From contig OZ244048.1 in NCBI GenBank assembly GCA_965215265.1, positions 96,001 through 160,000 on the forward strand: 64,000 nt of DNA. The letters are read 5' to 3'. Below the pieces are notes generated by a model. The model was given only the letters and a program-made list of their open reading frames with translations, searched no databases and was not told the origin of the DNA. This stretch comes from Candidatus Poribacteria bacterium (lineage in GTDB: Bacteria > Poribacteria > WGA-4E > WGA-3G). Made by a program: the position numbers and the translations under genes. The first letter of the stretch is position 1. The number at the start of each line of letters is the position of its first letter. Positions 19,760 to 54,693 of this stretch are shown here, one piece after another.

Positions 19760-19806
19760 TATAAATTTCCCCTTTTTGTATCTTTTAGCACGTTAACTTC
19801 TGATAT

Positions 19807-19962
19807 TTTTCGTATATCTCCGTACCGTCAACACCTATACTATTGATGGTTCGTGTGTACATCTCGTCGGAGGTTCCTTATGCATAGCATAAGATGGCTC
19901 AGACGAGATTTGTAAAGGCTTTAATATTGCAGCTGCCTTTATGGGGCTGCAGTAGACGAAAA
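19807..19962 (-). repeat. Two-arm palindromic intergenic repeat element (copy A), with an extra partial arm at 19773-19797
   Basis: Reverse complement aligns along its length with 21847-22009; inner inverted repeat ATCTCGTCGGAG (19861-19872) / CTCAGACGAGAT (19898-19909). Confidence 0.9.
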
Positions 19963-20042
19963 GGACTGATGCGGATGCCAAAAGAAATTATTAACCAGAA
20001 CTGCTGGAACGCTACAGTGTCCACTTCGAGTAATGTTTGAAT

Positions 20043-20124
20043 ATAATAACACAAAAAAAGAGTTTTGTCAAACTTTAGATGATTTACAATTCTGGTTGAC
20101 ATTGAATGCGTGAAGTGTTAAAAT
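20043..20124. promoter_or_regulatory. Divergent sigma70 promoters (minus: TolB-like gene; plus: tmk-holB)
   Basis: Minus: TTGACA (20071-20066) - 17 nt - TATTAT (20048-20043). Plus: TTGACA (20096-20101) - 17 nt - TAAAAT (20119-20124) with TGn extension. Confidence 0.7.
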
Positions 20125-20154
20125 TTGCAAATATTAAAATAAGAGAAGGCGATA

Positions 20155-20769
20155 ATGGCACAGCGTGGATTTTTCATTACGGTTGAAGGTATAGAAGGTG
20201 CAGGCAAAACAACGCAGGTAAACCACTTGGAGGCAGTTCTGCGGGGAAATGTTATTGTTACTCGCGAACCCGGCGGCACACTCATTTCGGAACGCATTCG
20301 CGATGTTTTTATGAATTCGGAGGGTATAACTGCAACAACCGAGTTGTTGTTGATTGCCGCTGCACGCGCACAACACGTTGCCGAACTCATACGCCCCGCA
20401 CTTGAAGGAAGCCAGATTGTCATCTGTGACAGGTTCATTGATGCAACTATCGCTTATCAAGGCTATCGGGCGGGTATGGATATCACACTCATCAATCACT
20501 TAAATCAGATTGCCACAGGTGGTATCCTTCCAGACCTTACGTTTATACTCGATCTTGCCCCAGAGATTGGGCTGCAACGGCACTATCAGATGCACGACCG
20601 GTTCCACAAGGAGCCGTTAGAATCCCACCGCAAAGTGCGAGAAGGGTATCTGGCAATCGCGAGAGCAGAACCGCATCGAGTTAAAGTGATAGATGCAGCA
20701 GTTTGTCCGGATGCTGTACACGCCGCGCTCCTCGCTGAGTGTAAGAAACGCGGAATACTCTCTGTTTGA
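20155..20769 (+). CDS. tmk: Thymidylate kinase
   Basis: FITVEGIEGAGKTTQ, TREPGG, CDRFIDATIAYQG, PDLTFILD. Confidence 0.97.
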   Translation: MAQRGFFITVEGIEGAGKTTQVNHLEAVLRGNVIVTREPGGTLISERIRDVFMNSEGITATTELLLIAAARAQHVAELIRPALEGSQIVICDRFIDATIAYQGYRAGMDITLINHLNQIATGGILPDLTFILDLAPEIGLQRHYQMHDRFHKEPLESHRKVREGYLAIARAEPHRVKVIDAAVCPDAVHAALLAECKKRGILSV

Positions 20770-20811
20770 GGATAGAGGCTCCCTATGTAGGAACACGGAC
20801 GAGGATAGAAA

Positions 20812-21804
20812 ATGAAAGGTACAATCATTGGGCATCAGCAAATTGTTGAACAACTCCGGTGTACCGTTGCATCCGGTAGGATTGCTGGCGCGTATCTCTT
20901 TGTCGGACCGCCGGGCGTTGGAAAAGAGACGGTGGCGACTTATTTCGCACGTTTAATCTTTTGCCACCGAAATAACGAGGCCGATGCCGTTTGCGAATTT
21001 TCCAGTAGCAGTTCGCAGAATTTACAAGATTGCCTCGCTTGTCGAAAGGTGGCATCCGGCAATCACCCAGATCTTCGATTTATTCGGCCAACCGGAAACC
21101 AGTTGAAGATAGCCCAAATTCGGGAATTACAAAAACAGATTATCTATGAGCCCCTTGAGGCTAGTAGGAAGGTTTACATTTTGACAGACGCGGAGCGGAT
21201 GAATATAGAGGCAGAAAACTGCCTACTCAAGACCTTAGAAGAACCGCCTGCCTCATCCGTTTTAATCCTACTCACTTCAAACCTAGAATCCTTGCTGCCG
21301 ACGACCCGCTCACGATGTCAGATTCTCCAATTTCATCCGATGCAGACTGAAGCATTGGCACAAGTGTTGATGAGGAGATTTGCTGTTGAGGGACCACGGG
21401 CCACCTCAATCGCGATTGCAGCGAAGGGAGCTATCGGAAAAGCACTCACACAACTTGAAAAAGGGCAGGTACGCACGCACGAAGTACCGGAGATCCTGAA
21501 GGAAACAGACCTGTTAGCCGCTTTTAGATTCGCTGAACAATTCAAGAATGAACCAGAAAATTTAGCCGAACTGATTACGTGGTATCGCGACCTGTTATTT
21601 TTACATCAGGGTGCGCCGAAGGAGCTCATAACCCACCTGCAGTCGATTGAGGAACTCAGCACGCTTCTGCCCCGATATTCGCGATTGCGCATCCAGCAAG
21701 CTATCCAGACTGTGTTTTACACCAAGGCACTTATTGAGAACACCAACACAAACGCAACATTGGCCTTGGAGGTCATGTGTCTAAAATTATTAAAACAGCC
21801 TTGA
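20812..21804 (+). CDS. holB: DNA polymerase III subunit delta'
   Basis: AYLFVGPPGVGK, HPDL, AENCLLKTLEEPP, LLPTTRSRCQ; classical tmk-holB synteny. Confidence 0.93.
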   Translation: MKGTIIGHQQIVEQLRCTVASGRIAGAYLFVGPPGVGKETVATYFARLIFCHRNNEADAVCEFSSSSSQNLQDCLACRKVASGNHPDLRFIRPTGNQLKIAQIRELQKQIIYEPLEASRKVYILTDAERMNIEAENCLLKTLEEPPASSVLILLTSNLESLLPTTRSRCQILQFHPMQTEALAQVLMRRFAVEGPRATSIAIAAKGAIGKALTQLEKGQVRTHEVPEILKETDLLAAFRFAEQFKNEPENLAELITWYRDLLFLHQGAPKELITHLQSIEELSTLLPRYSRLRIQQAIQTVFYTKALIENTNTNATLALEVMCLKLLKQP

Positions 21805-21817
21805 CACCTTAACTCAC

Positions 21818-21846
21818 TTGACAAATAGCATTTTTTATGTTAAAAT
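21818..21846 (+). promoter_or_regulatory. Sigma70 promoter upstream of the repeat array and metG
   Basis: TTGACA (21818-21823) - 17 nt - TAAAAT (21841-21846) with TGn extension. Confidence 0.7.
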
Positions 21847-22283
21847 TTTTGTCTACTGCAGCCCCTACAAAGGCAGCTGCAATATTTACCCGTTTGCAAA
21901 TCTCGTCTGAGCCATTTTATACTATGCCGCCTAAACAGAGAGAGACTCCGACGAGATTTACACACGAGTACTCACGACATAAACGTTGACGGTACGGAGA
22001 TATACGAAATACGCTTTTTTGTCTACTGCAGCCCCATGAAAGTTGCTGTAATGTTCAATCCACTATAAATCTCGCCAGAGGGTTCTGATGTTTAGATTTT
22101 TAAAGACATAACCTAAGGAATCTCCGACGAGATTTACACACGAGTACTCACGACATAAACGTTGACGGTACGGAGATATACGAAATACGAGATTTACACA
22201 CGAACTCTCAAAGCAGAGGCGTTGATGGTACCGAGATATACGAAAAAGCAGAGGCGTTGATGGTACCGAGATATACGAAAAAG
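21847..22283 (+). repeat. Tandem array of the palindromic repeat element: two full copies plus two truncated right arms
   Basis: Full copies ~21847-22009 and ~22017-22185; identical 68-bp blocks at 21946-22013 and 22122-22189; truncated arm 22187-22247; exact 35-bp tandem repeat 22213-22247 / 22248-22282. Confidence 0.95.
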
Positions 22284-22291
22284 GAAAACCG

Positions 22292-24196
22292 ATGGACGCA
22301 TTTTACGTCACTACCCCCATCTACTACGTCAACGGCGAACCGCATGCCGGACACGCCTATACTACGATAGCTGCTGATGTCTTAGCCCGTTACCATCGCC
22401 TCAAAGGCAATGCTGTCTGCTTCCTCACAGGTGTTGATGAGCACGGGGCAAATATTCAGAAAGCCGCAGAGCAGGAGGGGCTTGAACCGCAAGCATATTG
22501 CGATAAGATGGCACCCACGTTTGAAAAACTCTGGAAGCAGTTGAATATTTCCAATGACATTTTTATGCGGACAACAAGCCAGATGCACAAACGCGGTGTC
22601 TCTAAATTCATCAACGCTCTCTATGAAACTGGCGATATCTATAAGGATAAATATCAAGGGTACTACTGTCGGCCCTGCGAACAGTTTTTTACTGAGAAGG
22701 AGCTGAATGCTGAGAAAGTCTGTCTGATTCATAAATTGCCGTTAGAATGGGTGGAGGAAGAGAATTATTTTTTCGCACTCTCCAAATATCAAAAGCAATT
22801 AATAGACCATTTCCACGCGAATCCGGATTTTATTTATCCGCCAAGTCGACGCAACGAACTATTGAGTGTTTTGGAATCTGGATTAGAAGATACCTGCATC
22901 TCTCGTGCCTCGGTTTCGTGGGGCATTCCGTTGCCGTTCGCTCCGGAATATATCTCTTATGTCTGGATAGAAGCATTGAGCAACTATATGACTGCCCTCG
23001 GCTATGAAACAGAGAGTGAGCAGTATCGTACTTTTTGGCCTGCTGATGTTCATATGATGGCGAAGGACATCATCCGCTTTCACGCGCTCCTCTGGCCAGC
23101 GATGCTGATGGCTGTGAAACTGCCGCTCCCGAAGCATATCGTCGCTCATGGATGGTTAACAAAAGATGGCGAGGCACTCAGTAAAACGCGAGGCATCGTG
23201 ATTGATATGGAGATGGACATCAAAAAATATGGGTTAGATGCCTTCCGTTACTATCTCTTGCGAGAGTTTAGCTTCGGGAACGATGGTGATTACCGCCCGG
23301 GCCGCTTACACGCCCGTTACAATGCAGATCTTGCTAACGACCTTGGTAATCTGCTCAATAGAGTGCTCGGACTCGTCAATAAAAATTTCCAACACGTTCC
23401 GGAGCCGACTGACCCGGGTGAATTTGACAGTGAAATCAGAGCGATGGCGCACGGAACAGTGGAAAACCTTGACGTTTTAATCCGAGAATTTGCTTTCGAT
23501 AGAGCCTTGGAGACAATCTGGGAGTTTGTCCGACGTATCAACCGATATATTCAACAGACACAAGTTTGGACACTCGCTAAACCTGATACAAAATCGAGAA
23601 TGGGGACTATCCTATACAATAGTCTTGAGGCACTACGTATTATCTCGGTGCTCATTTCGCCATTTATGCCAGATACCGCGCAGCGGATGCGACGACAACT
23701 GGGCTTAGATGCCTCCTTGGAATCTAACACAGACAGCCTTCAATCTTGTCAAGAATGGGGTGGATTACCATCAGGGTTAATTGTCAGTAGAGGCGAACCG
23801 ATTTTTCCGCGCGTTGATACAAAGCAGCCCAAGCAAAAAAAGGTATCGGAACAGAGCACGGGGGTTGTCTCTCAGGACCTTATCACATTTTCCGATTTCC
23901 AAAAACTGGATTTACGCGCCGCCAAGGTGATTGCTGCCGAACGCATTGAAGGTGCCGACAAACTCTTGAAATTACAAGTCGATTTGGGTTCCGTTTCTCG
24001 GCAGATAGTCGCTGGCATCGCCGAACATTATACACCTGAAACTGTAATTGGAAAACAGGTGATTGTAGTGGCGAATTTAGAACCTGCGACGATTCGTAGC
24101 GTTAAATCAGAGGGCATGCTGCTCGCAGCGAGTGGTGATTCAGTCGTTTTGGCAACGCTTGAAACAGAGGTCTCCCCCGGTTCGCAAATTCGTTAA
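22292..24196 (+). CDS. metG: Methionine--tRNA ligase with C-terminal tRNA-binding domain
   Basis: FYVTTPIYYVNGEPHAGHAYT, TGVDEHG, YC..CE, KDIIRFHA, DLANDLGNLLNR, C-terminal Trbp (RQIVAGIA, SEGMLLAA). Confidence 0.97.
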   Translation: MDAFYVTTPIYYVNGEPHAGHAYTTIAADVLARYHRLKGNAVCFLTGVDEHGANIQKAAEQEGLEPQAYCDKMAPTFEKLWKQLNISNDIFMRTTSQMHKRGVSKFINALYETGDIYKDKYQGYYCRPCEQFFTEKELNAEKVCLIHKLPLEWVEEENYFFALSKYQKQLIDHFHANPDFIYPPSRRNELLSVLESGLEDTCISRASVSWGIPLPFAPEYISYVWIEALSNYMTALGYETESEQYRTFWPADVHMMAKDIIRFHALLWPAMLMAVKLPLPKHIVAHGWLTKDGEALSKTRGIVIDMEMDIKKYGLDAFRYYLLREFSFGNDGDYRPGRLHARYNADLANDLGNLLNRVLGLVNKNFQHVPEPTDPGEFDSEIRAMAHGTVENLDVLIREFAFDRALETIWEFVRRINRYIQQTQVWTLAKPDTKSRMGTILYNSLEALRIISVLISPFMPDTAQRMRRQLGLDASLESNTDSLQSCQEWGGLPSGLIVSRGEPIFPRVDTKQPKQKKVSEQSTGVVSQDLITFSDFQKLDLRAAKVIAAERIEGADKLLKLQVDLGSVSRQIVAGIAEHYTPETVIGKQVIVVANLEPATIRSVKSEGMLLAASGDSVVLATLETEVSPGSQIR

Positions 24197-24362
24197 TTCT
24201 GTTTCGCAGATGGGAGCGGTAAAGCCAATTGGCCACGGAATTGCACGTGTCCATCGCGTCCAAGATACTGTCATTAAGACTCACTGTTGGAATGCCGGAA
24301 TGGCATTCCACTTCGATTTAAGCACTTTGCAGTATTCCGCTGATGATACATTGAGAAGACAG

Positions 24363-27344
24363 ATGGCAAACATTGAAGACATCCTCAAAACCCGTATTCA
24401 GAACAACAATGCCGAAACCTTCGTTGTACTCGTTCCTACCAATTCCGCACGTCTGAAACGGCAACGTGAGTTGCTCGCATATCATCCGAACAAGGCTGTT
24501 GCGAATTTACATGTGGAGACGCTAGAGAAGTTTGTGCAAAAACTCTACGCGCAACTACGTCCAACTGATAGGCCGAATCGGATTTCACCCGGCATGCAAA
24601 CCTTATGGCTACGAAAGCTTGTCGATAGGCTGCGGCCAGAAACCTTCCAGCCCATGGAGGGAGTTAAGGTACCCGATAGTACACTCTCGCTCATTGTTAG
24701 TACAATTAACTCTCTCAGTGAGCATAGCGCGACTAATGTCGAATGGGCACAATTCAGCACGCCAAATACCCCAATTTTAGAAACGCTCGCTGAGATTTAT
24801 GCTTCGTATCAAAAAGAGATGGGTAACGAATGGGTCGATGATGCCGGAATGCACCATTTTCTTGCATCACAGTTTCAACAAAGACTGATGAGGAAAGCGT
24901 TCCCGCATGTCACTCTTGTTGTTGTTGAGGATTTTGATGTCCTTTCCAAAGCCTCTATCGCTCTTTTAAAACAAATTGCTGAAATGCCAAATATGCAACT
25001 CTGCATCCGTTCGGACTACTCTAACGAAAACCGTGCGCTGTTTGGACATATTCAGAAGCTTTTTGACGAACTCAGCAGTCCCAACATTGCAATTCGTGAG
25101 TTTCCTTCCCAACACTCCGAACGAAACCGGCATTTTGCCGACAACTTATTTCGTACGGGGGAACCGGATGCCGAACGATGGAACGCAGAAGAGCAAATTA
25201 AATTGGTGAAACCCGTCGACCGGAGAGACGAAGTAGAACTGATTGCACAACTGATTCGACAGCGAGTGGCAACGGGAGCGTGTGAACTCAGTGACATCTG
25301 TGTAACGTATCACGATTTACGTTCTTATTTACAACAGATCTCGGAAATCTTTCCCGAGTATGGTATTCCGTATTCTGTGTTAGAGGGAATTCCGCTTGTG
25401 CATTCTCCATTGGTGAAGGCGATTTTTTCTCAGCTTAAAGGAGGTACATCACCAACAGCGTCGCCCTATTTTTCTACTACTTCCTTGGCTAATGAAATAT
25501 CTAGAGAAGAACAGATAGCACCAGAGGCCTTTAAAACCTATTTTGCGGAATTTCTTAGAGAGCGGGAGGTTCTCTGCAACATTTTAAATTTATCCGGAAG
25601 TTCGCATTCGCAAGCGCGGATTGCAACGGATTCGGAAATACACGCGTATAACGAACTCAACGCGCGCGTTTCAGAACTATGCGATTCTCTGGATGAGCAA
25701 CGGTACCGCTATAAAGACTACATAGAGTGGCTTCGGCTGATAGTGATGCATACGACGTATCAAATCCCAGAAACGGACGGCGGTGTTCGAATCCTTCGAT
25801 TATCCCAACTCCGGAGCCTGGAATTTGACACGGTCATCCTGGGTGATTTGATAGACGGAAAATTCCCGGAGAGTTTCCGCCCGGATGCATTGCTGCCTCA
25901 GGCCTATGCACGAAACGAGACAGATTTGCTCTGCCAGAACCGTTTTCTGTTTTATACCGTTCTCAAAACTTTCCGAAAACGGCTTTATCTGATGAGCCCA
26001 CAACGTGAAAATGAAACACTTCTTATCCCCTCCCCATTTCTCGCACAATTGGAGCAGGTTGCTAAAATTGACACGGAAGTGGTTGAAAATATGGGGGAAT
26101 TTAGCCAAAGCAGCTTCCTGCGGAAATATGGCCAATATCTCTGGGATTGCGAGGAACCGGGCACCCTATATAGCCGGGAAGCTGCAGACACCTTAGGAGA
26201 TAATGTGTTTCAAAATTTACAAGAATGTTGTTCACTGATCGACCACGTTGTCACTGTCGAAAAAAGCCGGGAGAAGACTCATAATCGTTTAGCTTACGAA
26301 GGCATATTAACTGCTGGTCCACTTTCTGTCGAAAGTAGCGCGCAATTGAGAAGGCGGTGCGATGAAACCTATTCCATAACCAAACTAGAAAAATACGCAG
26401 CGTGCCCTTTTCAGTTTTTTGCTGACGATGTACTGACTTTCCGCAAAAAAGAAGAGGTACTAGAAGAAGAGGGCTTGTCTGCTCTAGAAAGAGGGGATTT
26501 AGTTCATCAGATTCTCTCTGAATTCCATCGCAACCGCCCGAGCAGTGCACGGTTAGCACAATGCAGCCCGTCTGAAATTCAAGAAGCAAAAGCACAACTA
26601 CGTGAAATTATAGATAAACAACTAAGCAACAGCGAATCGGATAACCTCTTACGCGAGATTGATGAGACACTACTGAGAACTGCTCTCCGCAAGTGGTTTG
26701 AGGCAGAACAGAAGTCAGATGTGAACATGCACCCATCCTACTTTGAAGTTGACATAGATTATCAAAATTCGCTTCAGATCGATGACGTACGGCTGAAGGC
26801 AAAAATTGATAGGATTGATGTCGGAGACACCGTTTTTAATGTGATTGATTATAAAACAGGGAATACAATTCCGAAAATGCCAGATATACTTGAAGGACGT
26901 GCACTTCAACTCCCGCTCTACATTAAGATGGCGCAGCAACAGCAAAATGGAAAGTCCATTCCTGCAGCAGGACTGTATTACAAAATCAGATTTGACGGAT
27001 GCAAAGTTGAACTGGGCATAGGAAAAGAGACTTACAAGAAAGTAGCTTACAAAACATATAACGGTGAAACTTGGAAATCCATAACTAGCAAGCAGATGGT
27101 CTCCGAAGAGGAATTTGACAATGTCATCGAACGCGTGAGCGGGTATGTCCGGCAGTATGTAGACGCAATTGGCCGTGGTAAGTTTCCGCTCATCACACAA
27201 GTTAAGGAGTTTGTCGATTCAGTGGAGGATGGCGATGCTCCGTTGACTCCGCGTAATTTGACTGCACCTTGCAGCTACTGTTCATATAAGAAGATGTGCC
27301 GTGTGGGAGCTATGTCTAAAAGCAGTTCCGTTGAAACTTCGTAG
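24363..27344 (+). CDS. AddB/RexB-like PD-(D/E)XK nuclease with degenerate helicase-like N-terminus
   Basis: YSITKLEKYAACPFQFF, LERGDLVHQIL, KIDRID..VIDYKTG, LQLPLY, C-terminal CSYCSYKKMC (Fe-S staple). Start reassigned to ATG 24363 (uncertain). Confidence 0.85.
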   Translation: MANIEDILKTRIQNNNAETFVVLVPTNSARLKRQRELLAYHPNKAVANLHVETLEKFVQKLYAQLRPTDRPNRISPGMQTLWLRKLVDRLRPETFQPMEGVKVPDSTLSLIVSTINSLSEHSATNVEWAQFSTPNTPILETLAEIYASYQKEMGNEWVDDAGMHHFLASQFQQRLMRKAFPHVTLVVVEDFDVLSKASIALLKQIAEMPNMQLCIRSDYSNENRALFGHIQKLFDELSSPNIAIREFPSQHSERNRHFADNLFRTGEPDAERWNAEEQIKLVKPVDRRDEVELIAQLIRQRVATGACELSDICVTYHDLRSYLQQISEIFPEYGIPYSVLEGIPLVHSPLVKAIFSQLKGGTSPTASPYFSTTSLANEISREEQIAPEAFKTYFAEFLREREVLCNILNLSGSSHSQARIATDSEIHAYNELNARVSELCDSLDEQRYRYKDYIEWLRLIVMHTTYQIPETDGGVRILRLSQLRSLEFDTVILGDLIDGKFPESFRPDALLPQAYARNETDLLCQNRFLFYTVLKTFRKRLYLMSPQRENETLLIPSPFLAQLEQVAKIDTEVVENMGEFSQSSFLRKYGQYLWDCEEPGTLYSREAADTLGDNVFQNLQECCSLIDHVVTVEKSREKTHNRLAYEGILTAGPLSVESSAQLRRRCDETYSITKLEKYAACPFQFFADDVLTFRKKEEVLEEEGLSALERGDLVHQILSEFHRNRPSSARLAQCSPSEIQEAKAQLREIIDKQLSNSESDNLLREIDETLLRTALRKWFEAEQKSDVNMHPSYFEVDIDYQNSLQIDDVRLKAKIDRIDVGDTVFNVIDYKTGNTIPKMPDILEGRALQLPLYIKMAQQQQNGKSIPAAGLYYKIRFDGCKVELGIGKETYKKVAYKTYNGETWKSITSKQMVSEEEFDNVIERVSGYVRQYVDAIGRGKFPLITQVKEFVDSVEDGDAPLTPRNLTAPCSYCSYKKMCRVGAMSKSSSVETS

Positions 27345-27392
27345 CGTCGATTCACCCGTGTCTCGCTCCTACGCCTGAAAATGGTTTTCTTT

Positions 27393-27459
27393 TTTTGTCT
27401 ATTTCAGCCCCATCAAGGGTTATGTATTGTTAAATTCGATGTACATCTCGTCGGAGGTT
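27393..27459 (+). repeat. Single arm of the palindromic repeat family
   Basis: 36 bp (27400-27435) identical to 33388-33423; 20 bp (27440-27459) identical to 19856-19875. Confidence 0.9.
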
Positions 27460-27624
27460 AGGTATTCTTTGTCTGTCCATGAGACAAGATAACCTTATAC
27501 CTGCCATCTATAGATCGGAGGTTAACTCGGTATAGTTTTTTTTAATCAAAACCTAATCCAATTAAGACTAAAATTGCTAAATGTACTGAGCTTATGATAG
27601 AATAGTGGTATATAGGAGGACGCG

Positions 27625-28752: not shown

Positions 28753-28822
28753 GGGCTGGATGCATCCCGGAGGACCTGGTAGATTGAGGCAGTGGATTCG
28801 CAAAATATAACGGAGAGGAAAG

Positions 28823-30798: not shown

Positions 30799-31551
30799 TT
30801 ACGAAATGCCATCCCAATATTTCCACATATCTGCAGGCGTTTCAAATTTAATCTGGTCCAAGTCTTTCCGACGGTATCTACCGATAAGCGCGATTCTGAC
30901 GTTGTCCGCGCAGTTCGGACCTGCTGTGTGGCTCATCTGATGATGCCAAAAGCAGACATCTCCTGCCTCACCTGTGAATTCATAGCTCGGTCCTAAATCG
31001 AAAGGCGCGACACCGCCGGGGAGACTGTCTAAGTCATGGTACCTGAAATATTCTGCCCAGACGCGATGGCTCTGCGGCCAGACTGTAAATCCACCGCCGT
31101 GTTTCTTGACAGGGCCGAGATAGACGGTCGCTCCGAGTGTAAAAGAGCCTACGGTCCCTTTGGGAACACCGTTCGTCGGTGTATGGTAACCGTCTAAATG
31201 GCCGACGGGTTCTCGCCATTCCCTATCCGGATCCGGAAAATTGATATGTGGCCCTGCCCCGCCGCCGGTATTTAATTTACCTGCCCCAACGAGCTCTTCC
31301 GCCATTTCAAACACTGGGTTGTTGTAGACGGTGCCGCGGATGACATCTTCGCCACCGATCGGTACGGTGCGGTACCCCTTGCGGATCCAAGAATCAGGAG
31401 TCTTTCTCTGCAGTTCGTCTTCTGAAGTTTCAAGTGCTTCCCAGACTCTGTCAAGTGCAGCATCAATTGCCTCAGTCTCCAGCGCACCGCGCACGACGAG
31501 GTAACCTTGCTCTTTAAAAAACGTTTTGTCCTGAGCTGTCAAATACGCCAC
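30799..31551 (-). CDS. Phytanoyl-CoA dioxygenase (PhyH) family protein
   Basis: FFKEQGYLVV, HLDG, GGFTVWPQSH, AGDVCFWHHQMSH. GTG start at 31551 after GGAGG. Confidence 0.88.
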   Translation of the reverse strand: MAYLTAQDKTFFKEQGYLVVRGALETEAIDAALDRVWEALETSEDELQRKTPDSWIRKGYRTVPIGGEDVIRGTVYNNPVFEMAEELVGAGKLNTGGGAGPHINFPDPDREWREPVGHLDGYHTPTNGVPKGTVGSFTLGATVYLGPVKKHGGGFTVWPQSHRVWAEYFRYHDLDSLPGGVAPFDLGPSYEFTGEAGDVCFWHHQMSHTAGPNCADNVRIALIGRYRRKDLDQIKFETPADMWKYWDGIS

Positions 31552-31595
31552 TGTTGGTATCCTCCTATTGTTTTGCAGGTTGATCAAACAGATTA

Positions 31596-31671
31596 TTTGT
31601 ATATTTTAGCACGTTACCGTCGATGTTTTGATAAAACATTTACAAAACTCGTCGGAGCCTCTCTCTGTTTT
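31596..31671 (+). repeat. Diverged single arm of the palindromic repeat family
   Basis: TTTGTATATTTTAGCACG...CTCGTCGGAGCCTCTCTCTGTTT matches the reverse complement of 21933-21955 and resembles the partial arm at 19773. Confidence 0.75.
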
Positions 31672-31715
31672 GATTCATAACATAAGTGCAGGGTACTGAC
31701 CCAGCCTATCCGGGA

Positions 31716-33377: not shown

Positions 33378-33473
33378 TTTTTTCGTATATTTCAGCCCCA
33401 TCAAGGGTTATGTATTGTTAAATCCGAGGTTTTTACATTGCAGCCGCCTTGTTACGGGCTCCTGTAGACGAAA
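33378..33473. repeat. Internally deleted two-arm copy of the palindromic repeat family
   Basis: Left end TTTCGTATATTTCAGCCCCATCAA; right end reverse complement TTTCGTCTACAGGAGCCCGTAACAAGGCGGCTGCAAT, matching the left arm of 21847. Fills almost the whole intergenic space. Confidence 0.85.
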
Positions 33474-33481
33474 GATGGAGG

Positions 33482-46273: not shown

Positions 46274-46324
46274 CAACAGCAGACATCTCCCACAGAGTCT
46301 ACCGTTACTTAGTAGATAGTTCGC

Positions 46325-49300
46325 TTACTCGTCGGTTAGCTGCGTGGGCAAACTCTCAATCATTTTCGCCGATTCTACGCTCACATAGACGATGCGCTCT
46401 ATCGCTGTGATAAGGTCCCGCGGATGCTCAAACCAGCCGTTCGGATCGTTGACAATGCCGCTGTACTTGTCTTGCTTGATTTTGTAACGGTTGATAAACC
46501 ATTCCAAGGGCGTTCTGTCGTTGACCACGTAACGATGCGCTTCTTCTGGAATTCCAGATAATTGGACGTGTTCATTGATGATGAGTGTTGTTTTCGTTTC
46601 TTTATCGGCAAAACGCATGGCTCGCTTCCCTAATAGAAAATGCGCCGGTTTTTCCTCCCAAAATAAGATAGGTGTCCGTGTCCGGGGTTCAACTGTTAGA
46701 TTTGGGTATCGTTCGCCTGTCTCGTAATTGAGGTGGAGTTCGGCAAGACGGTTTCCTGCTTTAGCAAAAGTGCGGAATTCAGGTGCGAATGGGATATGTG
46801 GTAGCATCTTGGACAAATCGTTGGCGAATTGTTCTCTATAACTGGGTGCGTGGAGGAGCCCGTAAACGTAGTCGAAGATGTCGTCTTTGCTGATAGAGTC
46901 ATCTTGATAGTGTTCTTGGAAATTACGCAGTGCCGTGTCCGAGATATTGTCAATCCGTTCCGGTGTGCCGCCGATACTAGGAAAAGCGTTTGCTGCGTCG
47001 GATGTATCCATAGGCTTCAGATATCGATAGCGTGGGAAACACTGTGCACCGGCTTCACAAAAGTTAAGATCAGTCATCGTATCTGTCATAAGGGCAGAAA
47101 ATGGCTTTTTAGAACTGATGTTGGGGACACATATCACTCGGTTTTCGCTGGAACTGTCTGGGAAAATTCGATCTACTTGGAATTTCTCTTGTGCAAAGAG
47201 ATAGTCTGCGTAACAATACGTGGCAATAAAGGGTCGGTACAAAGTTTTCCGGATGTAACCCTTATCAAATTCTGTCCCTTTCTTTCGTTTCAATTGGTCC
47301 CTCAGTCCTCGAGACCACTTAATATTCGTAAGATTGTTGTGATGGGATACCACCTCATCTACCGTGAGTTCAGGATTCGCCTCAAGTTCAGAAAGTGCGG
47401 CGAGGTAGTCTTGCGTCATCCGTCTTGCATTTTCAGCGCATGCCTCGCGAGAAAAATTGTAGAGGTATGCGTCTCTGTTTGTTGCCAATCCCAAAGAGTA
47501 CAGCTGAAATATAGCATTATCCGCTTTGCCTGCTTTTGCCTGCTTTGTGCCTAGCGGATAAAACTTCGCAAATGCCTCGCTGCGTTGTCCAATCCAATCG
47601 TGGTGCTCATCGGGGGTGATTGTTTGCCAATCGTTGAACCCTTTTATAGAGACTGCCTTGCGGAGTGCCTCCAACTTCTCCTCACGTGTGAGGGAGTCGC
47701 CGATGTCATGGTAGTGGATGTGGCAGCCGTCGTGTATAGCGTTCGGATTTTTGATTAAAATGGTAATAGCGACAGGGGACTGAGTTGCATTCCCGAAAAC
47801 GCCTTCCCCTTCGGAGCGGAGCCCGCGTGCATCACCTCGGAGGTTCAGGACATAGATAGAACTGAACTCCTCTGCCCAACATGCGCGAATTGCCGAATCG
47901 ACCCTTCCAGTAATCCAACTACCAGGGGTGACAAATGCAACGACACCTTGTTCTTGGATCCTATCGGATGCCCAACGGATTGCCATCTTGTAAGTATCGT
48001 AAAGGTAACTTACTAGTGTTGTCGTTGAGCGAGCCACGTACGTGTTTTTTATTCGTTCTTCAAGTGCAGGATATTCCACATTCGGATTGTCATCCGAGGC
48101 GTTCTTCTGTCCTGCGGACCAGGGTGGATTGCCGACGATAACCTGGATTGAGAGTTGCTGTTGCCGTTCGGCGCGTTCGTTGTTGTCAGGCAGCCACTCC
48201 TTCGGCAAAAGCGTAGGAGCTTCCTGCTTGTTCAGGTTGAATGTATCGGTAAGGACGATGCCCTTAAAGGGTTCATAGTTGCTATCTCCGCCACGTCTTC
48301 CGCGGAAGGCTTCCTCAATATTGACGGCGGCGATGTAGTAGGCGAGGAGGACAATTTCGTTTGCGTGGAGTTCCTCCCGGAACTTCCGGTCCAAGTCATC
48401 AGGGCGAATCAGTTCGGATTGCAGCAGTTGAACCAGAAAGGTGCCGGTACCGGTGAATGGATCCAGCACCTGTACACCTTCATCGCTGAGGCTGCATCCA
48501 AACTCGTCTTGTAATATATCATTCACACTGTGTAAGATGAAGTCTACCAACGCAATTGGGGTATAGGCAATGCCGAGCCGGTCTGCCTCTTTTTTCAACC
48601 CCTTTTTGAAAAATTGTTCGTATAGCTCAGATAGGACCTGTTGCCGGCCTGCGCTGTTGTCTATACCGCGGACACGCATCCGCACGCTTTCGTAGAAGTC
48701 TTCTAAATTTCTCGTTTCGTTCTCCAGCCCGAATTCAGCGAAGTCCTGCTGTAGGTTATCTAACGCAGAAGCCACCGGGTTGCGTGAGGAAAAATCGTAA
48801 TCCTCGAAGAGTGCCGCGAAAACGGGCTGGGTTAAGATGTGCTGTGCCATCATATCTATGGCGTTGCTCCGCGTGATTGTGTCGTTTATTGACGCTTTCA
48901 ATTCTGTATGGAAGGCATCGAACCATTCACGAAGTGCCGTATTTGCAGGATTCTCCAATAGGTTTTCTATACGCCCAACAAGCCTGCCGAAAATAACGGC
49001 GACATCCTTTGCCCAATTTTCCCAGTATTTCTTATCGCCGCATTTCTCTACAATTTTTGGGAGGATTGCACTGATAGGAATATCCATCGGCATTAGCAGC
49101 TGCTGCACATCTGCGTCGGCACCCGGCACCCCGGCTCCAGCCCCACTCTCTCCACTTTTGCCGAAGATGAGTCTGTCAGGGAGTCTTTTGTTCAGATCTA
49201 TGCTATTGATTTCAGCGTCCAATCTATCGTCGTGCGAACGGAGGGCACGCAGCACGCCCCAGACGTTGGCGAATCGTTGATTGTCATCTAGCGCGGCGGC

Positions 49301-51157
49301 GGCGTCCTGACTTGCTGGGATAGCCACGGGCAGCACGATGTAACCGAACTCCTTATCCTTTGCTTTCCTCATCACGCGCCCCACTGCCTGAACGATATCA
49401 ATCTGCGAGTTTCGCGGGGTGATAAAGATTACCGCGTCGAGCGCCGGCACATCAATGCCTTCGGAGAGGCAGCGCACGTTGGAGAGTATGCGGCAAGTGC
49501 CCTCTTCACTCCCTTTTAACCAATCCAGGCACGCTTTCCGGTTCAAGGCGTGCTCCGTTCCATCGACGTGCTGCGTTTCGCACCGGAAATTTTCTAGGTA
49601 TTGTTCTTCTGGTAAGTGTTCAACCGCACGCTCAATAACTGGATTCCAGTTTCTAACCAGTGCCTTTGACGCTCTAATGGTGTCGGTAAAGGCGATGACG
49701 CGTTTTAGCGGTTTGATTGAGTCTTCGCCGAGCGCCTTGTTCTCTGGGTTTTGTAGCGCACGCCAGCAGCCCACAATCTTTGTGGCATCGTTAACGTTCA
49801 GCTCATTGCTGACGGGGCCAGTCTCACCCCTCAAAGCAGCGTTGACACCCCCTTCCGCTACACCGAGCACAACGACCTTGTAGTCGGCGAGCTCTCCTAT
49901 CTCAACCGCTTTGGAAAACGGGAGATGGTAGAATTCGCGTCCGTATTTCTCGTCGTCGTCCATAGAGAACACGTCTCGTTCATAGTTTGCGATTTTGGTT
50001 TTCACCGCTTCGGTGTAAATCTTTGGGGTGGCTGTCATATAGAGCCGTTTGTTAGCACGGATGCGAGTCTCATCGTGTACCAGAACGAAGGGGGAAAGCT
50101 GCCCGTCTGGCTGCTCTACACCGGTTGTTCTGTGTGCCTCGTCACAGAAGATAATATCAAACGGCGGTGCCCCGCCGGCTCCCTGGGCTTGCTCTACAAG
50201 TGGGAGTGAGTGATAGGTGCAGAAGACAACGCTCATTTTATCCGTATCAAGGGTTTTCAAGGTGTGTGAGATGGCTGAAGGGTTTGTGGTGACAGGGAGT
50301 TTGAGTTCCAGAATGGACGCATCTTCGGCTGTATTTCCGGCACGGGTATCAGAGCAGATGCCGATGTAGCTATGCGGGATGCCGCGCTGTTCTGACCATT
50401 CGCGCATCACTTGTGAAAGGAGCCCGATAGACGGCACCAGATAGAGGACCCTCCCGCCGATGCCGGCCAGCTGCTCTGCGATTCGGAGGGCGGTGAAGGT
50501 TTTGCCCGTGCCGCACGCCATAATCAACTTGCCCCGGGCGGCTTGTTTGAAACCTTCTATCACTTTCTCTAATGCCGCTTTTTGATGCGGCTTCAGGTTG
50601 AACCGTCTCTGTTGGTAGGTGAGCTGCTCGGGTGCCTCCAGGCGCAAGTCTGGCCACTTGAAGTGACTGCTTTCAAGTTCTCGGAAGTTCAGGATGCGGA
50701 GCTTGTCCTTTATCGGTTCTATGGTGCGGAGGGCGTTCTTTCCCCACCCTCCCCCGGTATTGACAATAATCCGTGAAGTGAAGAGCTCGCTTGCCGAGGC
50801 GGCGAGAAAAGAATCTATGTGTGGTTTTGAGAGTCGAGTGGTTTCGGCATAACACTTACATTGGATAGCACAATAGCCGCCCTCCCGTTGCTTTGCGACG
50901 ATGTCTATGCCGATATCGTTTCTGTCGAAGTCTGTGCGGCGGGCTGCCCAGTCTTTCCAGCGCCAGACTTCAGAGAACTGTTGCTTATAGTCCGGGTCCT
51001 CGCTGAAGTATGTGAGCATCAGGCGTTCGAAAAGTTCGCCTTTGTGAGACTCAGATTGAGCGGCTTCGCGGATGTAGTCTAAGACATTTTGGAAGTCAGG
51101 ATTGTTTTGGCTATTAGCACTGTGGGGGGTAAAGTAGGATTGCGTCAGTTGTGTCAT
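46325..51157 (-). CDS. Type ISP restriction-modification enzyme (Mrr-like nuclease + SF2 helicase + N6-adenine MTase + TRD; LlaGI/LlaBIII-like)
   Basis: FERL...GIDIV...IQCKCY nuclease; MACGTGKT, DEAHRT, MTATP, LSEGIDVP, QAVGRVMR helicase; DPFTGTGTF and GNPPW MTase; 1610 aa; AGGAG RBS. Confidence 0.93.
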   Translation of the reverse strand: MTQLTQSYFTPHSANSQNNPDFQNVLDYIREAAQSESHKGELFERLMLTYFSEDPDYKQQFSEVWRWKDWAARRTDFDRNDIGIDIVAKQREGGYCAIQCKCYAETTRLSKPHIDSFLAASASELFTSRIIVNTGGGWGKNALRTIEPIKDKLRILNFRELESSHFKWPDLRLEAPEQLTYQQRRFNLKPHQKAALEKVIEGFKQAARGKLIMACGTGKTFTALRIAEQLAGIGGRVLYLVPSIGLLSQVMREWSEQRGIPHSYIGICSDTRAGNTAEDASILELKLPVTTNPSAISHTLKTLDTDKMSVVFCTYHSLPLVEQAQGAGGAPPFDIIFCDEAHRTTGVEQPDGQLSPFVLVHDETRIRANKRLYMTATPKIYTEAVKTKIANYERDVFSMDDDEKYGREFYHLPFSKAVEIGELADYKVVVLGVAEGGVNAALRGETGPVSNELNVNDATKIVGCWRALQNPENKALGEDSIKPLKRVIAFTDTIRASKALVRNWNPVIERAVEHLPEEQYLENFRCETQHVDGTEHALNRKACLDWLKGSEEGTCRILSNVRCLSEGIDVPALDAVIFITPRNSQIDIVQAVGRVMRKAKDKEFGYIVLPVAIPASQDAAAALDDNQRFANVWGVLRALRSHDDRLDAEINSIDLNKRLPDRLIFGKSGESGAGAGVPGADADVQQLLMPMDIPISAILPKIVEKCGDKKYWENWAKDVAVIFGRLVGRIENLLENPANTALREWFDAFHTELKASINDTITRSNAIDMMAQHILTQPVFAALFEDYDFSSRNPVASALDNLQQDFAEFGLENETRNLEDFYESVRMRVRGIDNSAGRQQVLSELYEQFFKKGLKKEADRLGIAYTPIALVDFILHSVNDILQDEFGCSLSDEGVQVLDPFTGTGTFLVQLLQSELIRPDDLDRKFREELHANEIVLLAYYIAAVNIEEAFRGRRGGDSNYEPFKGIVLTDTFNLNKQEAPTLLPKEWLPDNNERAERQQQLSIQVIVGNPPWSAGQKNASDDNPNVEYPALEERIKNTYVARSTTTLVSYLYDTYKMAIRWASDRIQEQGVVAFVTPGSWITGRVDSAIRACWAEEFSSIYVLNLRGDARGLRSEGEGVFGNATQSPVAITILIKNPNAIHDGCHIHYHDIGDSLTREEKLEALRKAVSIKGFNDWQTITPDEHHDWIGQRSEAFAKFYPLGTKQAKAGKADNAIFQLYSLGLATNRDAYLYNFSREACAENARRMTQDYLAALSELEANPELTVDEVVSHHNNLTNIKWSRGLRDQLKRKKGTEFDKGYIRKTLYRPFIATYCYADYLFAQEKFQVDRIFPDSSSENRVICVPNISSKKPFSALMTDTMTDLNFCEAGAQCFPRYRYLKPMDTSDAANAFPSIGGTPERIDNISDTALRNFQEHYQDDSISKDDIFDYVYGLLHAPSYREQFANDLSKMLPHIPFAPEFRTFAKAGNRLAELHLNYETGERYPNLTVEPRTRTPILFWEEKPAHFLLGKRAMRFADKETKTTLIINEHVQLSGIPEEAHRYVVNDRTPLEWFINRYKIKQDKYSGIVNDPNGWFEHPRDLITAIERIVYVSVESAKMIESLPTQLTDE

Positions 51158-51650
51158 ATCAGGCTCCTATTTTCAAAGAGGGGGTGTGGGTTGTTTGTGG
51201 CGCGTTCCCGTGTTGAAGTGGTGGCGTTAACGGGTTTCGGAGAATATGAGGAGCGACTGGAGAGTCGAGTTCTGTGGCTGTGTGGAGCAAGAGAGTGAGG
51301 AACGAACGCGGTTGTGGGAGTGGATATGCGTGCGTGCACGAGGCCGTGCGGGTGCAGATGGCGTTCGGTGCTGCTTTCGCGGTAAAGGAACTTAACTTCT
51401 GTATAGTTAAGGGGGGGGTAAATCGTTATTTGGGAGCGCCGCAACTTCGCAGCAGCAACGTGCGTAAATGTCCCAAACGGAGCTCGGATATCGGCGGAGG
51501 CCACCGATTTTCGTGGTTGTCTAAGAAGATATGTGTCTGTCCAGCCGTTCATAAGCACTGATTTTCCGGTGTCCGATGCTGTGAGAAATATCCCAATTAT
51601 TATACAATATGTCGACGGAGAATGCAAGTTCTATATCGATTATTATACTG

Positions 51651-51995
51651 CTAGAAGAATCCAAAGTTTTTATTTTCACAATTATTGTCTATGTGCTTGT
51701 CGTCAATTGGGCTCAGGTCTCGAATTTGATTACCATAGAGGCCAAGCCATGTCAGATTTTTGGCATGTTCCAAGCCGGTTAAGTTTTTGATTTCACTATC
51801 GCCTGCATCTAATCGCGTTAATTTTTGCATCTCCAATTCCGTAAGCGGGATTTGTTCAGGTAAACCGAGTGCTTCTTGTACTGCCTGTCGCAAATTGGGA
51901 TCCGGCATCCATTCGTTTTCTGCCACTGCGGCAAAATCGGATGCAATACCAAGTACAATCAGAATGGCTAAACCGAATCGACAAATCTGTTTCAT
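51651..51995 (-). pseudogene. Truncated internalin-like leucine-rich-repeat protein
   Basis: Signal peptide, cap MPDPNLRQAV, LRRs (IKNLTGLEHAKNLTWLGLYGNQIRDLSP), then an abrupt switch to AT-rich non-LRR sequence at ~51705. Confidence 0.8.
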
Positions 51996-51997
51996 AA

Positions 51998-53134
51998 CTA
52001 TCTACCTCCCGGAATTACTGCCACGTAAACTTGAGAATGCCCGGAAACGTCTGAGGTATACACAACCGCTGTTTCATCAGGACTAAAAGACGGGTGCGGA
52101 TGTGTCCATTGCGGTCCGTAGACGGTGTCGACCTTCATCTCCATCCAGCTGAGTGCCTGTTCTCTATCCGATGCCTGTTGCGCTGCGGCCCAATCCTCTG
52201 CGAGCGCGTACCGGTCAGTTTTCCATTGACTACCGCTTGAGGAGCTGTGCGGATAACAGATGGGCCTATGTTCTCCTGTTTCTACATCTACCAACCTTAA
52301 ACCGATATCTGGATGCACGGTATCACATAAAATCTTGGTGCCGTCGCGATTGCTGGCAATGTGCCATGCATTGAAATCGGCAATTGTCTGCATCTGGAGC
52401 GTTTCCAACGAGATGCACCGGAGCGCATAGGGCCAGTAAGTTACAATCAGTTCGTCTTTGTTGCCGAGGAACGTTTCGTGAACGAGAAATTCGTTATTGT
52501 CGTGTTGATAGAGCATCCGGTTTTCGGTGCCGTCGCGTCTGATAGTCCACATCCGTGGTGCTGGATCGCCGGAATAGGCGATGAGGTCTGCATGTTTGGG
52601 ATGGAACTGTGGATGGATAATTGTCTGCGTTGGAGAAGTATAGATAACCTCACCGCCGCTTCCATCGGTTGCTGTGACAGTGATGTGTGATTTGTCGTCG
52701 CGCTTCATTGCAGTGACAATGAACCGTTCATCGGCACTGACGCTACATTCACCGAGGCTGCTGCTGGGGAATGTTGCGAGTGTCCTTTCTGCCAACGTAT
52801 CCAACTCAATTGCCTTGATAGTAGGGCCTTGGGTGTAAAAAAGCTGAGTGCCGTCTTTGGCAATCACAGCAGAGTATCCGTGGATGTCATCAGCATCGGT
52901 GAGCTGCACGATATCGCCATCGGGAAACGCGACCTGAAAAAAGTTGGGTTTCCCCGAACGGTAAGAGGTAAAAATTACAGCCGTTTGGTCGGGTGTGAAC
53001 GAGGATGTGAGGAAATAGAGGTTGTGGTTAATAGATGTATCGTTGGTGAGTTGATAGCTCCGCGCCCCCGTTTCGGAATCTGTAAATTCTCTCAGTTCTG
53101 ATGGATGAACGGTGGCTTTTCCGTACTTTGCCAT
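51998..53134 (-). CDS. Oligogalacturonate lyase (Ogl)-family / TolB-like beta-propeller
   Basis: DSETGA..QLT, HNLYF..SFTPD, HPQFHP, HETF, HPHPSFSPD..VYTSD. Start MAKY after AGGAG. Confidence 0.8.
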   Translation of the reverse strand: MAKYGKATVHPSELREFTDSETGARSYQLTNDTSINHNLYFLTSSFTPDQTAVIFTSYRSGKPNFFQVAFPDGDIVQLTDADDIHGYSAVIAKDGTQLFYTQGPTIKAIELDTLAERTLATFPSSSLGECSVSADERFIVTAMKRDDKSHITVTATDGSGGEVIYTSPTQTIIHPQFHPKHADLIAYSGDPAPRMWTIRRDGTENRMLYQHDNNEFLVHETFLGNKDELIVTYWPYALRCISLETLQMQTIADFNAWHIASNRDGTKILCDTVHPDIGLRLVDVETGEHRPICYPHSSSSGSQWKTDRYALAEDWAAAQQASDREQALSWMEMKVDTVYGPQWTHPHPSFSPDETAVVYTSDVSGHSQVYVAVIPGGR

Positions 53135-53380
53135 GGGCTTATGACTCCTCATAATTTAAAATTACGTATCGGTATATTAGCAAAGTGTCAGTTTGTGTGC
53201 AATAAAAAAAATGATTCGGAAGGACAGGATCGGGCTGTCAATAATTTCTCATTTACCCCCATTTTTTTTGAAGTTTTGTGGTGAAAGGTTTTTGTTTAGA
53301 AAAGTGTGAGAAAAGCCGTGGGTTAGAGATACCCGAAACGGGGAAATCCAACATCTATGATAACGTGTTTTCAAGACATC

Positions 53381-53448
53381 TTCGCAGCAGCCTTTATTGT
53401 GCACTTGTAGACGAAAAAATGCCTTTATTGGGCTGCAGTAGACGAGAG
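53381..53448 (-). repeat. Two tandem truncated arms of the palindromic repeat family
   Basis: Reverse complement reads TCGTCTACTGCAGCCCAATAAAGGC-ATTTT-TTCGTCTACAAGTGCACAATAAAGGCTGCTGC, matching the left arm of 21847 and 19962. Confidence 0.85.
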
Positions 53449-53452
53449 AACG

Positions 53453-53640
53453 TTACTTGCGAATCAACATCTTGGGTGTAGCGGTGAAGTCCCCAGCGGT
53501 GAGCGTGTAAGTAGACCTCGCTCGCCACCGGCTCCCCGACGGCGTTCTGGCCATCCCAATACGCCGCACGTGCCCGAGTCCGGTAAAACTCTGCCTGCTG
53601 ATGCCCGAACGCTAGTGTGCGGACGAGCGTGCCGTGTGCA
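53453..53640 (-). pseudogene. Orphan frameshifted C-terminal FlgD-Ig / T9SS type-A-sorting-like domain remnant
   Basis: Hand translation: HGTLVRTLAFGHQQAEFYRTRARAAYWDGQNAVGEPVASEVY-(frameshift)-YTLTAGDFTATPKMLIRK*. Not in the ORF track. Confidence 0.85.
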
Positions 53641-53698
53641 AACAGGGGACGATTCCGCCGTGTGCGAGTAGGCGTTGGGTTGTCTCAGCGGCACCACT

Positions 53699-54622
53699 TT
53701 ATTCGGTGAAGTGCTGCATGAACGTCTCAAGGTTCTCAGCGGTGGCGGCGGCTTGGCATAACTGCTTGAGGTGCTCGATGTCTTGGACGGCTTCCAGAGA
53801 CGGTTTTAAGAGGTGCACCGCCCCAGGATGGAAGCGCGTCTCAAGGATATCTAAGATAGCCTCGATGTGTCCTTTAGCGCGTCCTTGTTCTATACCTTGT
53901 TCTATACCTTGCTCTATACCTTGCTCTATACCTTGCGCGATAAATTCATCGCGTAACAGTTGGAAATACTTCGATTCTCGCATCAGTCCCTCCGGTATCA
54001 GACGTTTGAAAAGCGACGCGTCATGCACAATACCCCCGAAAACCGACAGCGCACACAGTAAATCCCCTTGCGCCCCCTCATCCAAATCCGTACCTGTCGT
54101 CGCGGTTATACATCTTTGAAGCCAAGCCGCTGACTCCAAACCTTCAGGCGGTTTCATCAACGGCGTGAGCGGCAACAGCCCAGGCGCAGCCAACGCCAAA
54201 ATAGATTCACCTGCTACTTCTATCAGACGGATAACCTTATACCGCAACCGATAGGCGTAGCCACACAGACTATATTCATACACACCCTCATCCCTTCGCC
54301 CCGCTGACGGATGGAAATACAGCACATTCGAATACACCGGCAGCTGGTATTCCCCGAGCAGATAGCCGTGATACGCTGCGTTTCGTGCCCACATCGGTTT
54401 GGGTGTGCTATCTCGCACCTGCAACTCTATGTGTAGGATAGCCTCTTCGTTATCAATACGGATACGCTTGGTGCTATCGACACGCTGCCCGATAACCACC
54501 TGTTGTTCCGTGTCAAGGTTTTCAAGCACCTGAACATTGTCCACCCCGAGTATAAACCGTGAGATGTCGTCGGCATGCTCCGTCAACAGCTCTTTTGCCA
54601 TATTATCATAGTCTTGTGCCAT
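53699..54622 (-). CDS. Rpn/YhgA-like PD-(D/E)XK nuclease (transposase_31-related)
   Basis: YDNMAKELL, RVDS, ILHIELQ, LPVYSNVLY, LLPLTPLM, MRES..Q, (IEQG)x4, ILETRF. Confidence 0.88.
   Translation of the reverse strand: MAQDYDNMAKELLTEHADDISRFILGVDNVQVLENLDTEQQVVIGQRVDSTKRIRIDNEEAILHIELQVRDSTPKPMWARNAAYHGYLLGEYQLPVYSNVLYFHPSAGRRDEGVYEYSLCGYAYRLRYKVIRLIEVAGESILALAAPGLLPLTPLMKPPEGLESAAWLQRCITATTGTDLDEGAQGDLLCALSVFGGIVHDASLFKRLIPEGLMRESKYFQLLRDEFIAQGIEQGIEQGIEQGIEQGRAKGHIEAILDILETRFHPGAVHLLKPSLEAVQDIEHLKQLCQAAATAENLETFMQHFTE
53883..53936. repeat. 12-bp coding tandem repeat (IEQG x4)
   Basis: CCTTG(T/C)TCTATA x4 plus a partial unit. Confidence 0.95.
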
Positions 54623-54628
54623 AAAGTT

Positions 54629-54658
54629 ATTATACACCAATGTGTTGAAAAAAGTCAA
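54629..54658 (-). promoter_or_regulatory. Promoter giving a probably leaderless rpn transcript
   Basis: TTGACT (54658-54653) - 18 nt - TATAAT (54634-54629); ATG 6 nt downstream; no SD sequence. Confidence 0.6.
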
Positions 54659-54661
54659 GTA

Positions 54662-54693
54662 TTTGTATATTCGTATATTTCAGCCCATCAACC
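54662..54693 (+). repeat. Outer-end fragment(s) of the palindromic repeat family
   Basis: TTTGTATA-TTCGTATATTTCAGCCCATCAAC versus TTCGTATATTTCAGCCCCATCAA at 33382. Confidence 0.75.

Follow-up and report, generated by a model that had tools for sequence, protein, structure and literature searches.

How small repeats without a transposase of their own spread, BIMEs, CGTC-tagged REPs and SMRs among them, is a long-standing open question. TnpA-REP cuts between C and T on either flank of a REP and in vitro recombines BIMEs into tandem, variable forms; it has also been modelled to add tandem units (PMC3333891); a tetranucleotide at the foot of the hairpin guides the cut (PMC8266576), and in CGTC-tagged REPs the CGTC runs directly into an 8–9-bp stem (PMC3733652). 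Here, a repeat from Candidatus Poribacteria is set beside these systems. It was traced from a stretch of 64,000 nucleotides (the window; contig OZ244048.1 of assembly GCA_965215265.1, positions 96,001–160,000), in which a preliminary description had noted a dispersed palindromic family built from a ~65-bp arm. Its unit is instead an asymmetric, non-coding monomer of ~88 bp. The repeat is real, mobile and lineage-restricted, and behaves as an orphan repeat of the BIME, PATE or SMR type yet fails a defining test of each, because no RAYT, no IS605-like ends and no target duplication go with it.

The source genome, G000, is one contig of 4.83 Mb and 95% complete, and was compared within a set of 176 genomes of the phylum that includes a congener, G001, and a member of another genus, G004. 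The high-copy, intergenic, clustered and mosaic arrangement of the REP/BIME/REPIN kind is found in the monomer family. Like REPs, BIMEs and REPINs with their RAYTs (PMC3333891, PMC8266576, PMC3733652), it has hundreds of intergenic copies that are mosaic, tandem-stacked and head-to-head, and a small hairpin, preceded by GTAG in G004, whose core is common to planctomycete GTAG doublets. Unlike in these systems, its unit is ~88 bp long and has a fixed tip that lies 50 nt away from the hairpin, its tag has drifted to GTAA or ACAA in G000 and to GATA in G001, no RAYT carries the monomer, and its junctions do not fall between C and T. Membership of the CGTC-tagged REPs was rejected, since the CGTC present in some tips and in the inner loop is not followed by an 8–9-bp stem.

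The PATEs of Haloquadratum and other IS200/IS605 derivatives (PMC3119063) resemble the monomer in lacking terminal inverted repeats (TIRs) and target duplications, and in having a conserved terminal oligonucleotide and heterogeneous copies that are hit by other small repeats. They carry two near-terminal palindromes, whereas the monomer has a single central minihairpin, is unlike the IS605 ends found in its hosts, and forms head-to-head pairs that move as units. SMR-A and SMR-B of Haloquadratum (PMC3119063) share with the pairs inverted ends unrelated to known transposons, no duplication, other mobile repeats as targets and no known mobiliser; however, SMRs are ~80–110 bp long and usually >95% identical, whereas here half the element is mobile and alleles are heavily shuffled. 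No published description of this repeat family was found in a literature search by titles and abstract openings, which did not extend to subscription journals, ISfinder or supplements.

Anatomy, mobility and host range of the monomer

The monomer opens with a tip, TTTTYGTMTA, and continues through a mosaic middle to an inner box at positions 54–65 (ATCTCGYCDGAG), a ATGTWWWGAWTC tail and an inner end near position 88. The inner box is a REP-like minihairpin, ATCTC-GYCD-GAG. Over the 163 solos whose inner box is intact and which no companion repeat has entered, conservation runs past the proposed ~65 bp to position 88 and then collapses, column information being 0.4–0.5 bits at 84–88, 0.16 at 89 and ~0.05 past 91. 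Tip box and inner box lie ~44 bp, or four helical turns, apart, and the strongest self-similarity within the arm is at lag 42. The option preferred earlier, a site of two boxes around a free middle that serves protein binding or recombination, holds for the spacing, which is constant in three genomes while the middle diverges, but not for the freedom of the middle, which is a mosaic of few alleles (all four combinations occur in 408 of 435 pairs of two-allele columns); moreover, the boxes belong to a unit that itself moves. A protein-coding origin of the arm was rejected, as most copies carry stops in all six frames.

Across G000, the family far exceeds what chance would produce. Matches to a 65-nt profile number 953 at E ≤ 1 and 839 at E < 0.01, and the 907 at E < 0.1 group into 431 loci; an 88-nt profile gives 859 matches at E ≤ 0.01. 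The reversed genome, used as a control, gave 0 matches for either profile. Monomer copies cover 1.3% of G000, and the interiors of open reading frames (ORFs), which make up 61% of the genome, hold just 28 of the 859.

The mobility of the element follows from clean pairs of filled and empty sites, which the preliminary description had proposed to seek as a means of defining the ends, and which bear out its proposal of a non-autonomous mobile element. Solos (87–93 bp) and a pair (172 bp) insert precisely and without target duplication, and what moves is bounded exactly by the tip. The tnpB gene of an IS605 element in G001 contains a 93-bp solo, and alignment of four filled and two empty copies reveals no duplication beyond a one-A ambiguity; here the monomer is a passenger inside tnpB and not an end of the insertion sequence (IS). 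This IS605 element, its tnpB interrupted, has nonetheless multiplied to five copies (L161, L170, L171, L187, L188). For G000, 583 outer tips were screened against paralogues and retrieved loci, yielding 23 candidate rows. They include a 172-bp pair at 817243 whose site is empty in two paralogues (with a gap of 0, and detected from both ends), a solo of ~88 bp at 2303314 that a paralogue lacks (with a gap of 2), and, by comparison with the G004 orthologue, an 87-bp in-frame solo at 4517610. Joined flanks compared with paralogues by tblastx gave no clean empty site. No target duplication at offsets −4 to +7 rose above shuffles in 115 tip-to-tip loci, and of 40 pairs of close copies, excluding any flagged as segmental duplications, 35 share sequence up to the tip and 0–1 base past it. 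Near-identical copies of 152 bp, with 0 mismatches, sit at unrelated sites and look recent.

Where the PATE comparison calls for insertion 3' of a fixed 4–6-nt target, just a loose bias is seen: CRY occupies −4 to −2 of 95 of 493 outer tips, against 12–33 at other offsets. Solos between co-oriented genes face a start codon in 126 cases and a stop in 47, and where an in-frame ATG occurs within 40 nt of a tip (112 tips), the distance is exactly one base in 23 cases. Replication-strand polarity was rejected, orientation in G000 following transcription; the apparent megabase strand blocks of G004 were an artefact of a listing from which minus-strand matches were absent.

Full elements had been described as two head-to-head arms around a variable loop. 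Such pairs exist, but single-orientation loci such as solos are commoner (65-nt profile, G000), and the loop has been reinterpreted. Pair lengths group at 155–156, 161–164 and 170–171 bp, as expected of two 88-mers overlapping by ~21, 13 or 6 bp, so that the 'loop' is the overlap of two inner ends. The inverted arms of pairs are a median 62% identical, but the monomer has no inverted ends and inserts alone. Additional units stack outside the pairs: genome-wide, 96 of 226 stacked tips sit 60–62 bp behind the preceding tip, with the junction at ATCTCGT, and 11 sit at 87–88 bp (tip to inner end). Most stacked units are not local duplications, because identity to the neighbouring unit reaches ≥90% in just 17% of them, compared with 3% for random partners. 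Two further ideas were discarded, an invertase-like crossover at arm position 47 (the internal junctions of short pairs are scattered) and a tie between inner end and stop codons (the distances are scattered).

Other palindromic repeats enter the monomer at preferred points. Companion families of this kind (GTGGCAGG..., GCCCGCCCACC..., TCTATAGAT...) sit at fixed points within it genome-wide and in the window (27460–27520 and 54700–54769), and two of these families keep close to the arms, with 17 of 21 and 21 of 21 copies at most 200 bp away. Separately, G000 has two CRISPR repeat types near C1:0.52–0.54, 1.46 and 4.32 Mb, with 172 and 64 exact copies, one of which contains AATCTCGT, resembling the inner box.

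The proposed lineage specificity holds, the element being present in 3 of 176 phylum genomes. Inner boxes number 437 in G000, 425 in G004 and 36 in G001, and ≤14, that is background, in each of the remaining 173. Paired boxes number 92 in G000, 23 in G004 and 0 in the other 174, the 36 boxes of G001 forming no pair. Copies in G004 and G001 retain the TTTTCGT tip and the spacing, their middles differ, and they form head-to-tail arrays of 87 bp in G004 and of 69, 87 and 91 bp in G001. A small HolB tree places G002, which is without the element, between G004 and the pair of G000 and G001 with moderate support, which implies either loss or transfer. The element was not found in the viral contigs, plasmids or phages searched, and a metagenome scan with HolB returned only relatives at 72–74% identity.

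Copies in the window

All seven intergenic loci first reported carry the repeat, and both exact shared stretches were verified (36 bp common to 27400 and 33388; 20 bp common to 27440 and 19856). As had been stated, no transposase lies near the window copies. The features are as follows, with the basis of each in brackets.

19773..19806, + strand: short stacked outer piece of a monomer, before a pair (sequence)
19807..19962, no strand: head-to-head monomer pair, 156 bp, tips at 19807 (+) and 19962 (−) (profile; contigs of runs X5, X6 and X8)
21818..21846, + strand: promoter-like TTGACA-17-TAAAAT, 5' of metG (consensus match only)
21846..22010, no strand: head-to-head pair, 165 bp, first in the holB–metG array (profile)
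22016..22186, no strand: second head-to-head pair of the holB–metG array, 171 bp (profile)
22187..22246, − strand: stacked unit, 60 bp, with an inner-box junction at which ATCTCGT meets a tip (sequence, profile)
22247..22281, − strand: stacked unit, 35 bp, tip 10 bp ahead of the metG start codon (sequence)
27392..27459, + strand: monomer truncated right after the inner box by a companion palindromic repeat (~27460–27520) (sequence, profile)
31594..31681, + strand: solo monomer, 88 bp (profile)
33380..33474, no strand: pair of 95 bp, centre deleted, both inner boxes gone (pair-length analysis)
53384..53448, − strand: two short tip pieces, stacked (sequence)
54662..54701, + strand: short tip pieces just upstream of the multicopy ORF 53699–54658, followed by a companion repeat at 54700–54769 (sequence, profile)

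The array before metG spans from the last base of the promoter-like −10 box, whose final T is contributed by the monomer tip at 21846, to 10 bp before the start codon; in G001, the holB–metG junction is 145 bp long and without the element. The tip of the solo at 31594..31681 lies just upstream of the start of a phyH-like gene (30799–31587, −). Three run contigs span or enter the 19773 locus, with the element present and one of them ~1% diverged; at other loci the contigs break.

Other features of the window include a 21-bp in-frame insertion in tmk at 20245 in run X6, a Type ISP restriction-modification enzyme (46325–51157, −) with close copies elsewhere in G000, and the multicopy ORF 53699–54658 (−). 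The latter encodes 319 aa with a C-terminal IEQG repeat, has no Pfam or NCBIfam match and has relatives in 120 of 176 phylum genomes; we take its product to resemble Rpn-type nucleases.

Candidate movers

The explanation favoured here, at about even odds, is that this ~88-base repeat is moved as single-stranded DNA by an HUH enzyme (Y1, of IS200/IS605 or RAYT type) that comes from elsewhere and is undetectable in G000 today; the HUH step is one that we infer. Such an enzyme would bind the inner REP-like hairpin, cut at the fixed tip ~50 nt upstream of it and, less exactly, ~25 nt downstream, and join the tip behind a loose C-R-Y-N target. As the inner box itself fits that target, the element would insert into itself, which may explain the stacking. 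Recombination among hundreds of copies would then shuffle the alleles, while selection would exclude copies from genes and favour tips abutting a start codon. A fixed 5' end, a looser 3' end, the lack of duplication, a short target bias, stacks and mosaics together match the behaviour of Y1/HUH enzymes.

The inner box also looks like a REP relic. In G001, the hairpin has a perfect AATCTC-GTCG-GAGATT stem, its two further steps fully paired in 18 of 18 contexts, and GTAG precedes the hairpin in 33 of 73 contexts in G004, 7 of 340 in G000 and 0 of 18 in G001. The CTC-GYCD-GAG core occurs in GTAG-tagged doublets in 43 of 57 planctomycete genome stretches, among the matches listed. These doublets belong to a REP family that is widespread in Planctomycetota and has a CTC-GCCA-GAG hairpin core in common with the monomer; screening by a crude motif filter gave no Y1-type ORF up to 2.5 kb away from them.

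Several observations weigh against such an enzyme. The hairpin is degenerate in G000, where the next pair is Watson–Crick in 18% of 340 contexts and GTAG is as rare as stated above. These searches found no Y1, RAYT or TnpB gene or remnant in G000, nor did tblastn of that genome with three Y1 proteins and three ORFs taken from RAYT loci by a crude motif filter, although the copies look recent. The Y1/RAYT loci of G002, G004 and G007 have no adjacent inner box, and the IS605 ends of G001 and G004 are unlike the monomer, with only chance matches in G000. Observed junctions break the C-T rule of TnpA-REP, and the tip motif is more conserved than a hairpin-guided cut requires. The ATG start codon by itself accounts for some of the target bias (26 of 171 start-facing tips have CAT). 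As to the sites, just 4 of the 23 candidate rows, at 3 sites, are clean; of the others, one shows a loss of ~9 bp, and all the remainder align repeat on repeat or across a replaced flank. No empty allele at the 19773 locus occurs in contigs assembled from the runs of four studies, which speaks against present-day activity.

Two links that the preliminary description had proposed to check, of the outer motif to the terminal repeat of an IS and to a RAYT gene, fail in the hosts searched, where IS605 ends are unlike the monomer and RAYT loci lack the inner box; neither G000 nor G001 has a detected RAYT gene. G000 differs from its relatives in that neither TnpB nor a Y1 transposase was detected, while all eight relatives tested have 6–108 TnpB matches. 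Mobiliser candidates that failed comprise Y1/RAYT, tyrosine integrase, DDE_Tnp_1, rve, resolvase/IS607, PDDEXK_2, TnpB, reverse transcriptase, IS110 and Rpn-like families, as well as the diversity-generating retroelement (DGR); a search for IS91 Y2 enzymes matched no control genome, hence is uninformative.

It is possible, if on the unlikely side, that an unrecognised recombinase or host DNA-processing enzyme acts on double-stranded DNA with tip box and inner box as its two binding sites. The box spacing, fixed in three genomes while the middle diverges, and the self-similarity at lag 42 point this way, as do copies that look recent where no Y1 gene is found and a hairpin that has decayed in the genome with most copies. 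However, no candidate fits all three hosts. The sole tyrosine recombinase match is one broken gene in G000, with none in four relatives; the resolvase adjoining one copy is unmatched in G004, and G001 lacks resolvases altogether; and both Rpn-like families are absent from G001 while present in 120 and 122 of 176 genomes.

A resolvase/invertase gene at C1:3344472–3345180 of G000 follows a monomer pair directly downstream and is interrupted at its 3' end by a companion palindromic repeat; 536 of 3856 G000 ORFs have a monomer copy within 150 bp, so adjacency to a gene is common. G001, G002, G004 and G007 have no Phage_integrase (PF00589) match, so no XerC/D-like recombinase was detected in them, and all 14 control genomes matched. 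G000 carries 24 YhgA-like (PF04754) genes (e.g. C1:1421466–1424062), several of which adjoin DGR target genes.

Rather doubtfully, the family might represent a new class of minimal asymmetric DNA replicator of ~88 bp, which causes no target duplication and assembles palindromic dimers and stacks of itself; its movement would then continue, in a genome without genes for Y1, TnpB, IS110, rve or an intact tyrosine recombinase, through an enzyme that has so far not been known to act as a transposase.

That the pair is a classical miniature inverted-repeat transposable element (MITE), its arms the TIRs of a lost DDE transposon, with solos and missing duplications arising from later deletions, is unlikely. 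Correia, ERIC and YPAL elements, bacterial MITEs, resemble the monomer pairs as imperfect intergenic palindromes of the 155–171-bp type near gene starts, but unlike the monomer family they carry target duplications and, to our knowledge, move only as two-ended units. Pairs of the monomer do move tip-to-tip as units, tips border on start codons, as would be expected after adjacent deletions (the 23 of 112 lying exactly 1 nt from ATG), and solos end near the symmetry centre of pairs. Yet clean insertions, a pair's among them, lack duplications, a solo inserted into an intact gene (the G001 tnpB), and G001 has its 36 boxes without a pair; solos move, and the ends are common to no transposon, so that in the strict sense the earlier MITE label is not supported. 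Just three inward-facing arm pairs enclose >500 bp, and their contents are ordinary genes. No transposase was found between inward-facing arms (rve 0, IS110 0, DDE_Tnp_1 only five weak matches; the search did not take in every DDE family), nor any multicopy gene family flanked by such arms in G000.

Quite unlikely, too, is a domesticated regulatory element, a translation-start or promoter module that gene conversion has spread and function has preserved. This would suit the orientation of solos towards start codons (126 against 47), the GGAG that one allele has ~12 nt ahead of an ATG, and the position of the metG array between a promoter-like site and the start codon; but the element has also inserted into the tnpB coding region, occurs in so few genomes of the phylum (3 of 176) and is missing from the same junction in the congener, and the positional bias is what selection on random insertions would leave.

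Copying of the monomer via RNA by the DGR reverse transcriptase of both high-copy genomes is very improbable. The two enzymes are closely related (83% identical), and the type is found at ≥78% identity in 10 of 176 genomes; however, eight DGR-bearing genomes have background box counts, G001 has the element without such an enzyme, differences between close monomers are not adenine-specific, non-coding DGR DNA is unlike the monomer, and the match emerged after about a dozen families had been tried. The DGR itself is complete at C1:1418066–1421170 of G000 (L150:8067–11200) and also in G004 (L146), comprising a target with an FGE-sulfatase domain, Avd, reverse transcriptase and template repeat. 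Its template matches 38 dispersed G000 stretches, with 750 of 1000 mismatches at template adenines, and therefore one DGR may diversify dozens of paralogues; nothing related to this DGR came up in a literature search.

A structured non-coding RNA, as first entertained, is scarcely credible: pairs fold better than shuffles (median z −4.0 over 65 pairs; z −5.3 for 19807–19962 folded as DNA) and columns 26 and 46 covary as C-G/G-C, but Rfam has 0 matches in the window, the consensus fold is the CTC-GYCD-GAG 3-bp minihairpin alone, the monomer has a median z of −0.14, paired arms are less alike than random partners (0.59 against 0.64 ± 0.01, n = 51), the opposite of compensatory pairing, and the 26:46 signal follows a one-base register shift between alleles, without neighbouring pairs, and is not seen in G004.

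Significance

The family offers exact ends, matched empty sites, and hosts with 36, ~425 and ~860 copies, one of which is without the usual enzymes, and its mobiliser is therefore directly testable; the interest would be greater still if the mover proved to be a new enzyme. For the organisms themselves, the element makes up 1.3% of the genome and often lies between promoter and start codon, and so likely reshapes gene expression in this lineage.

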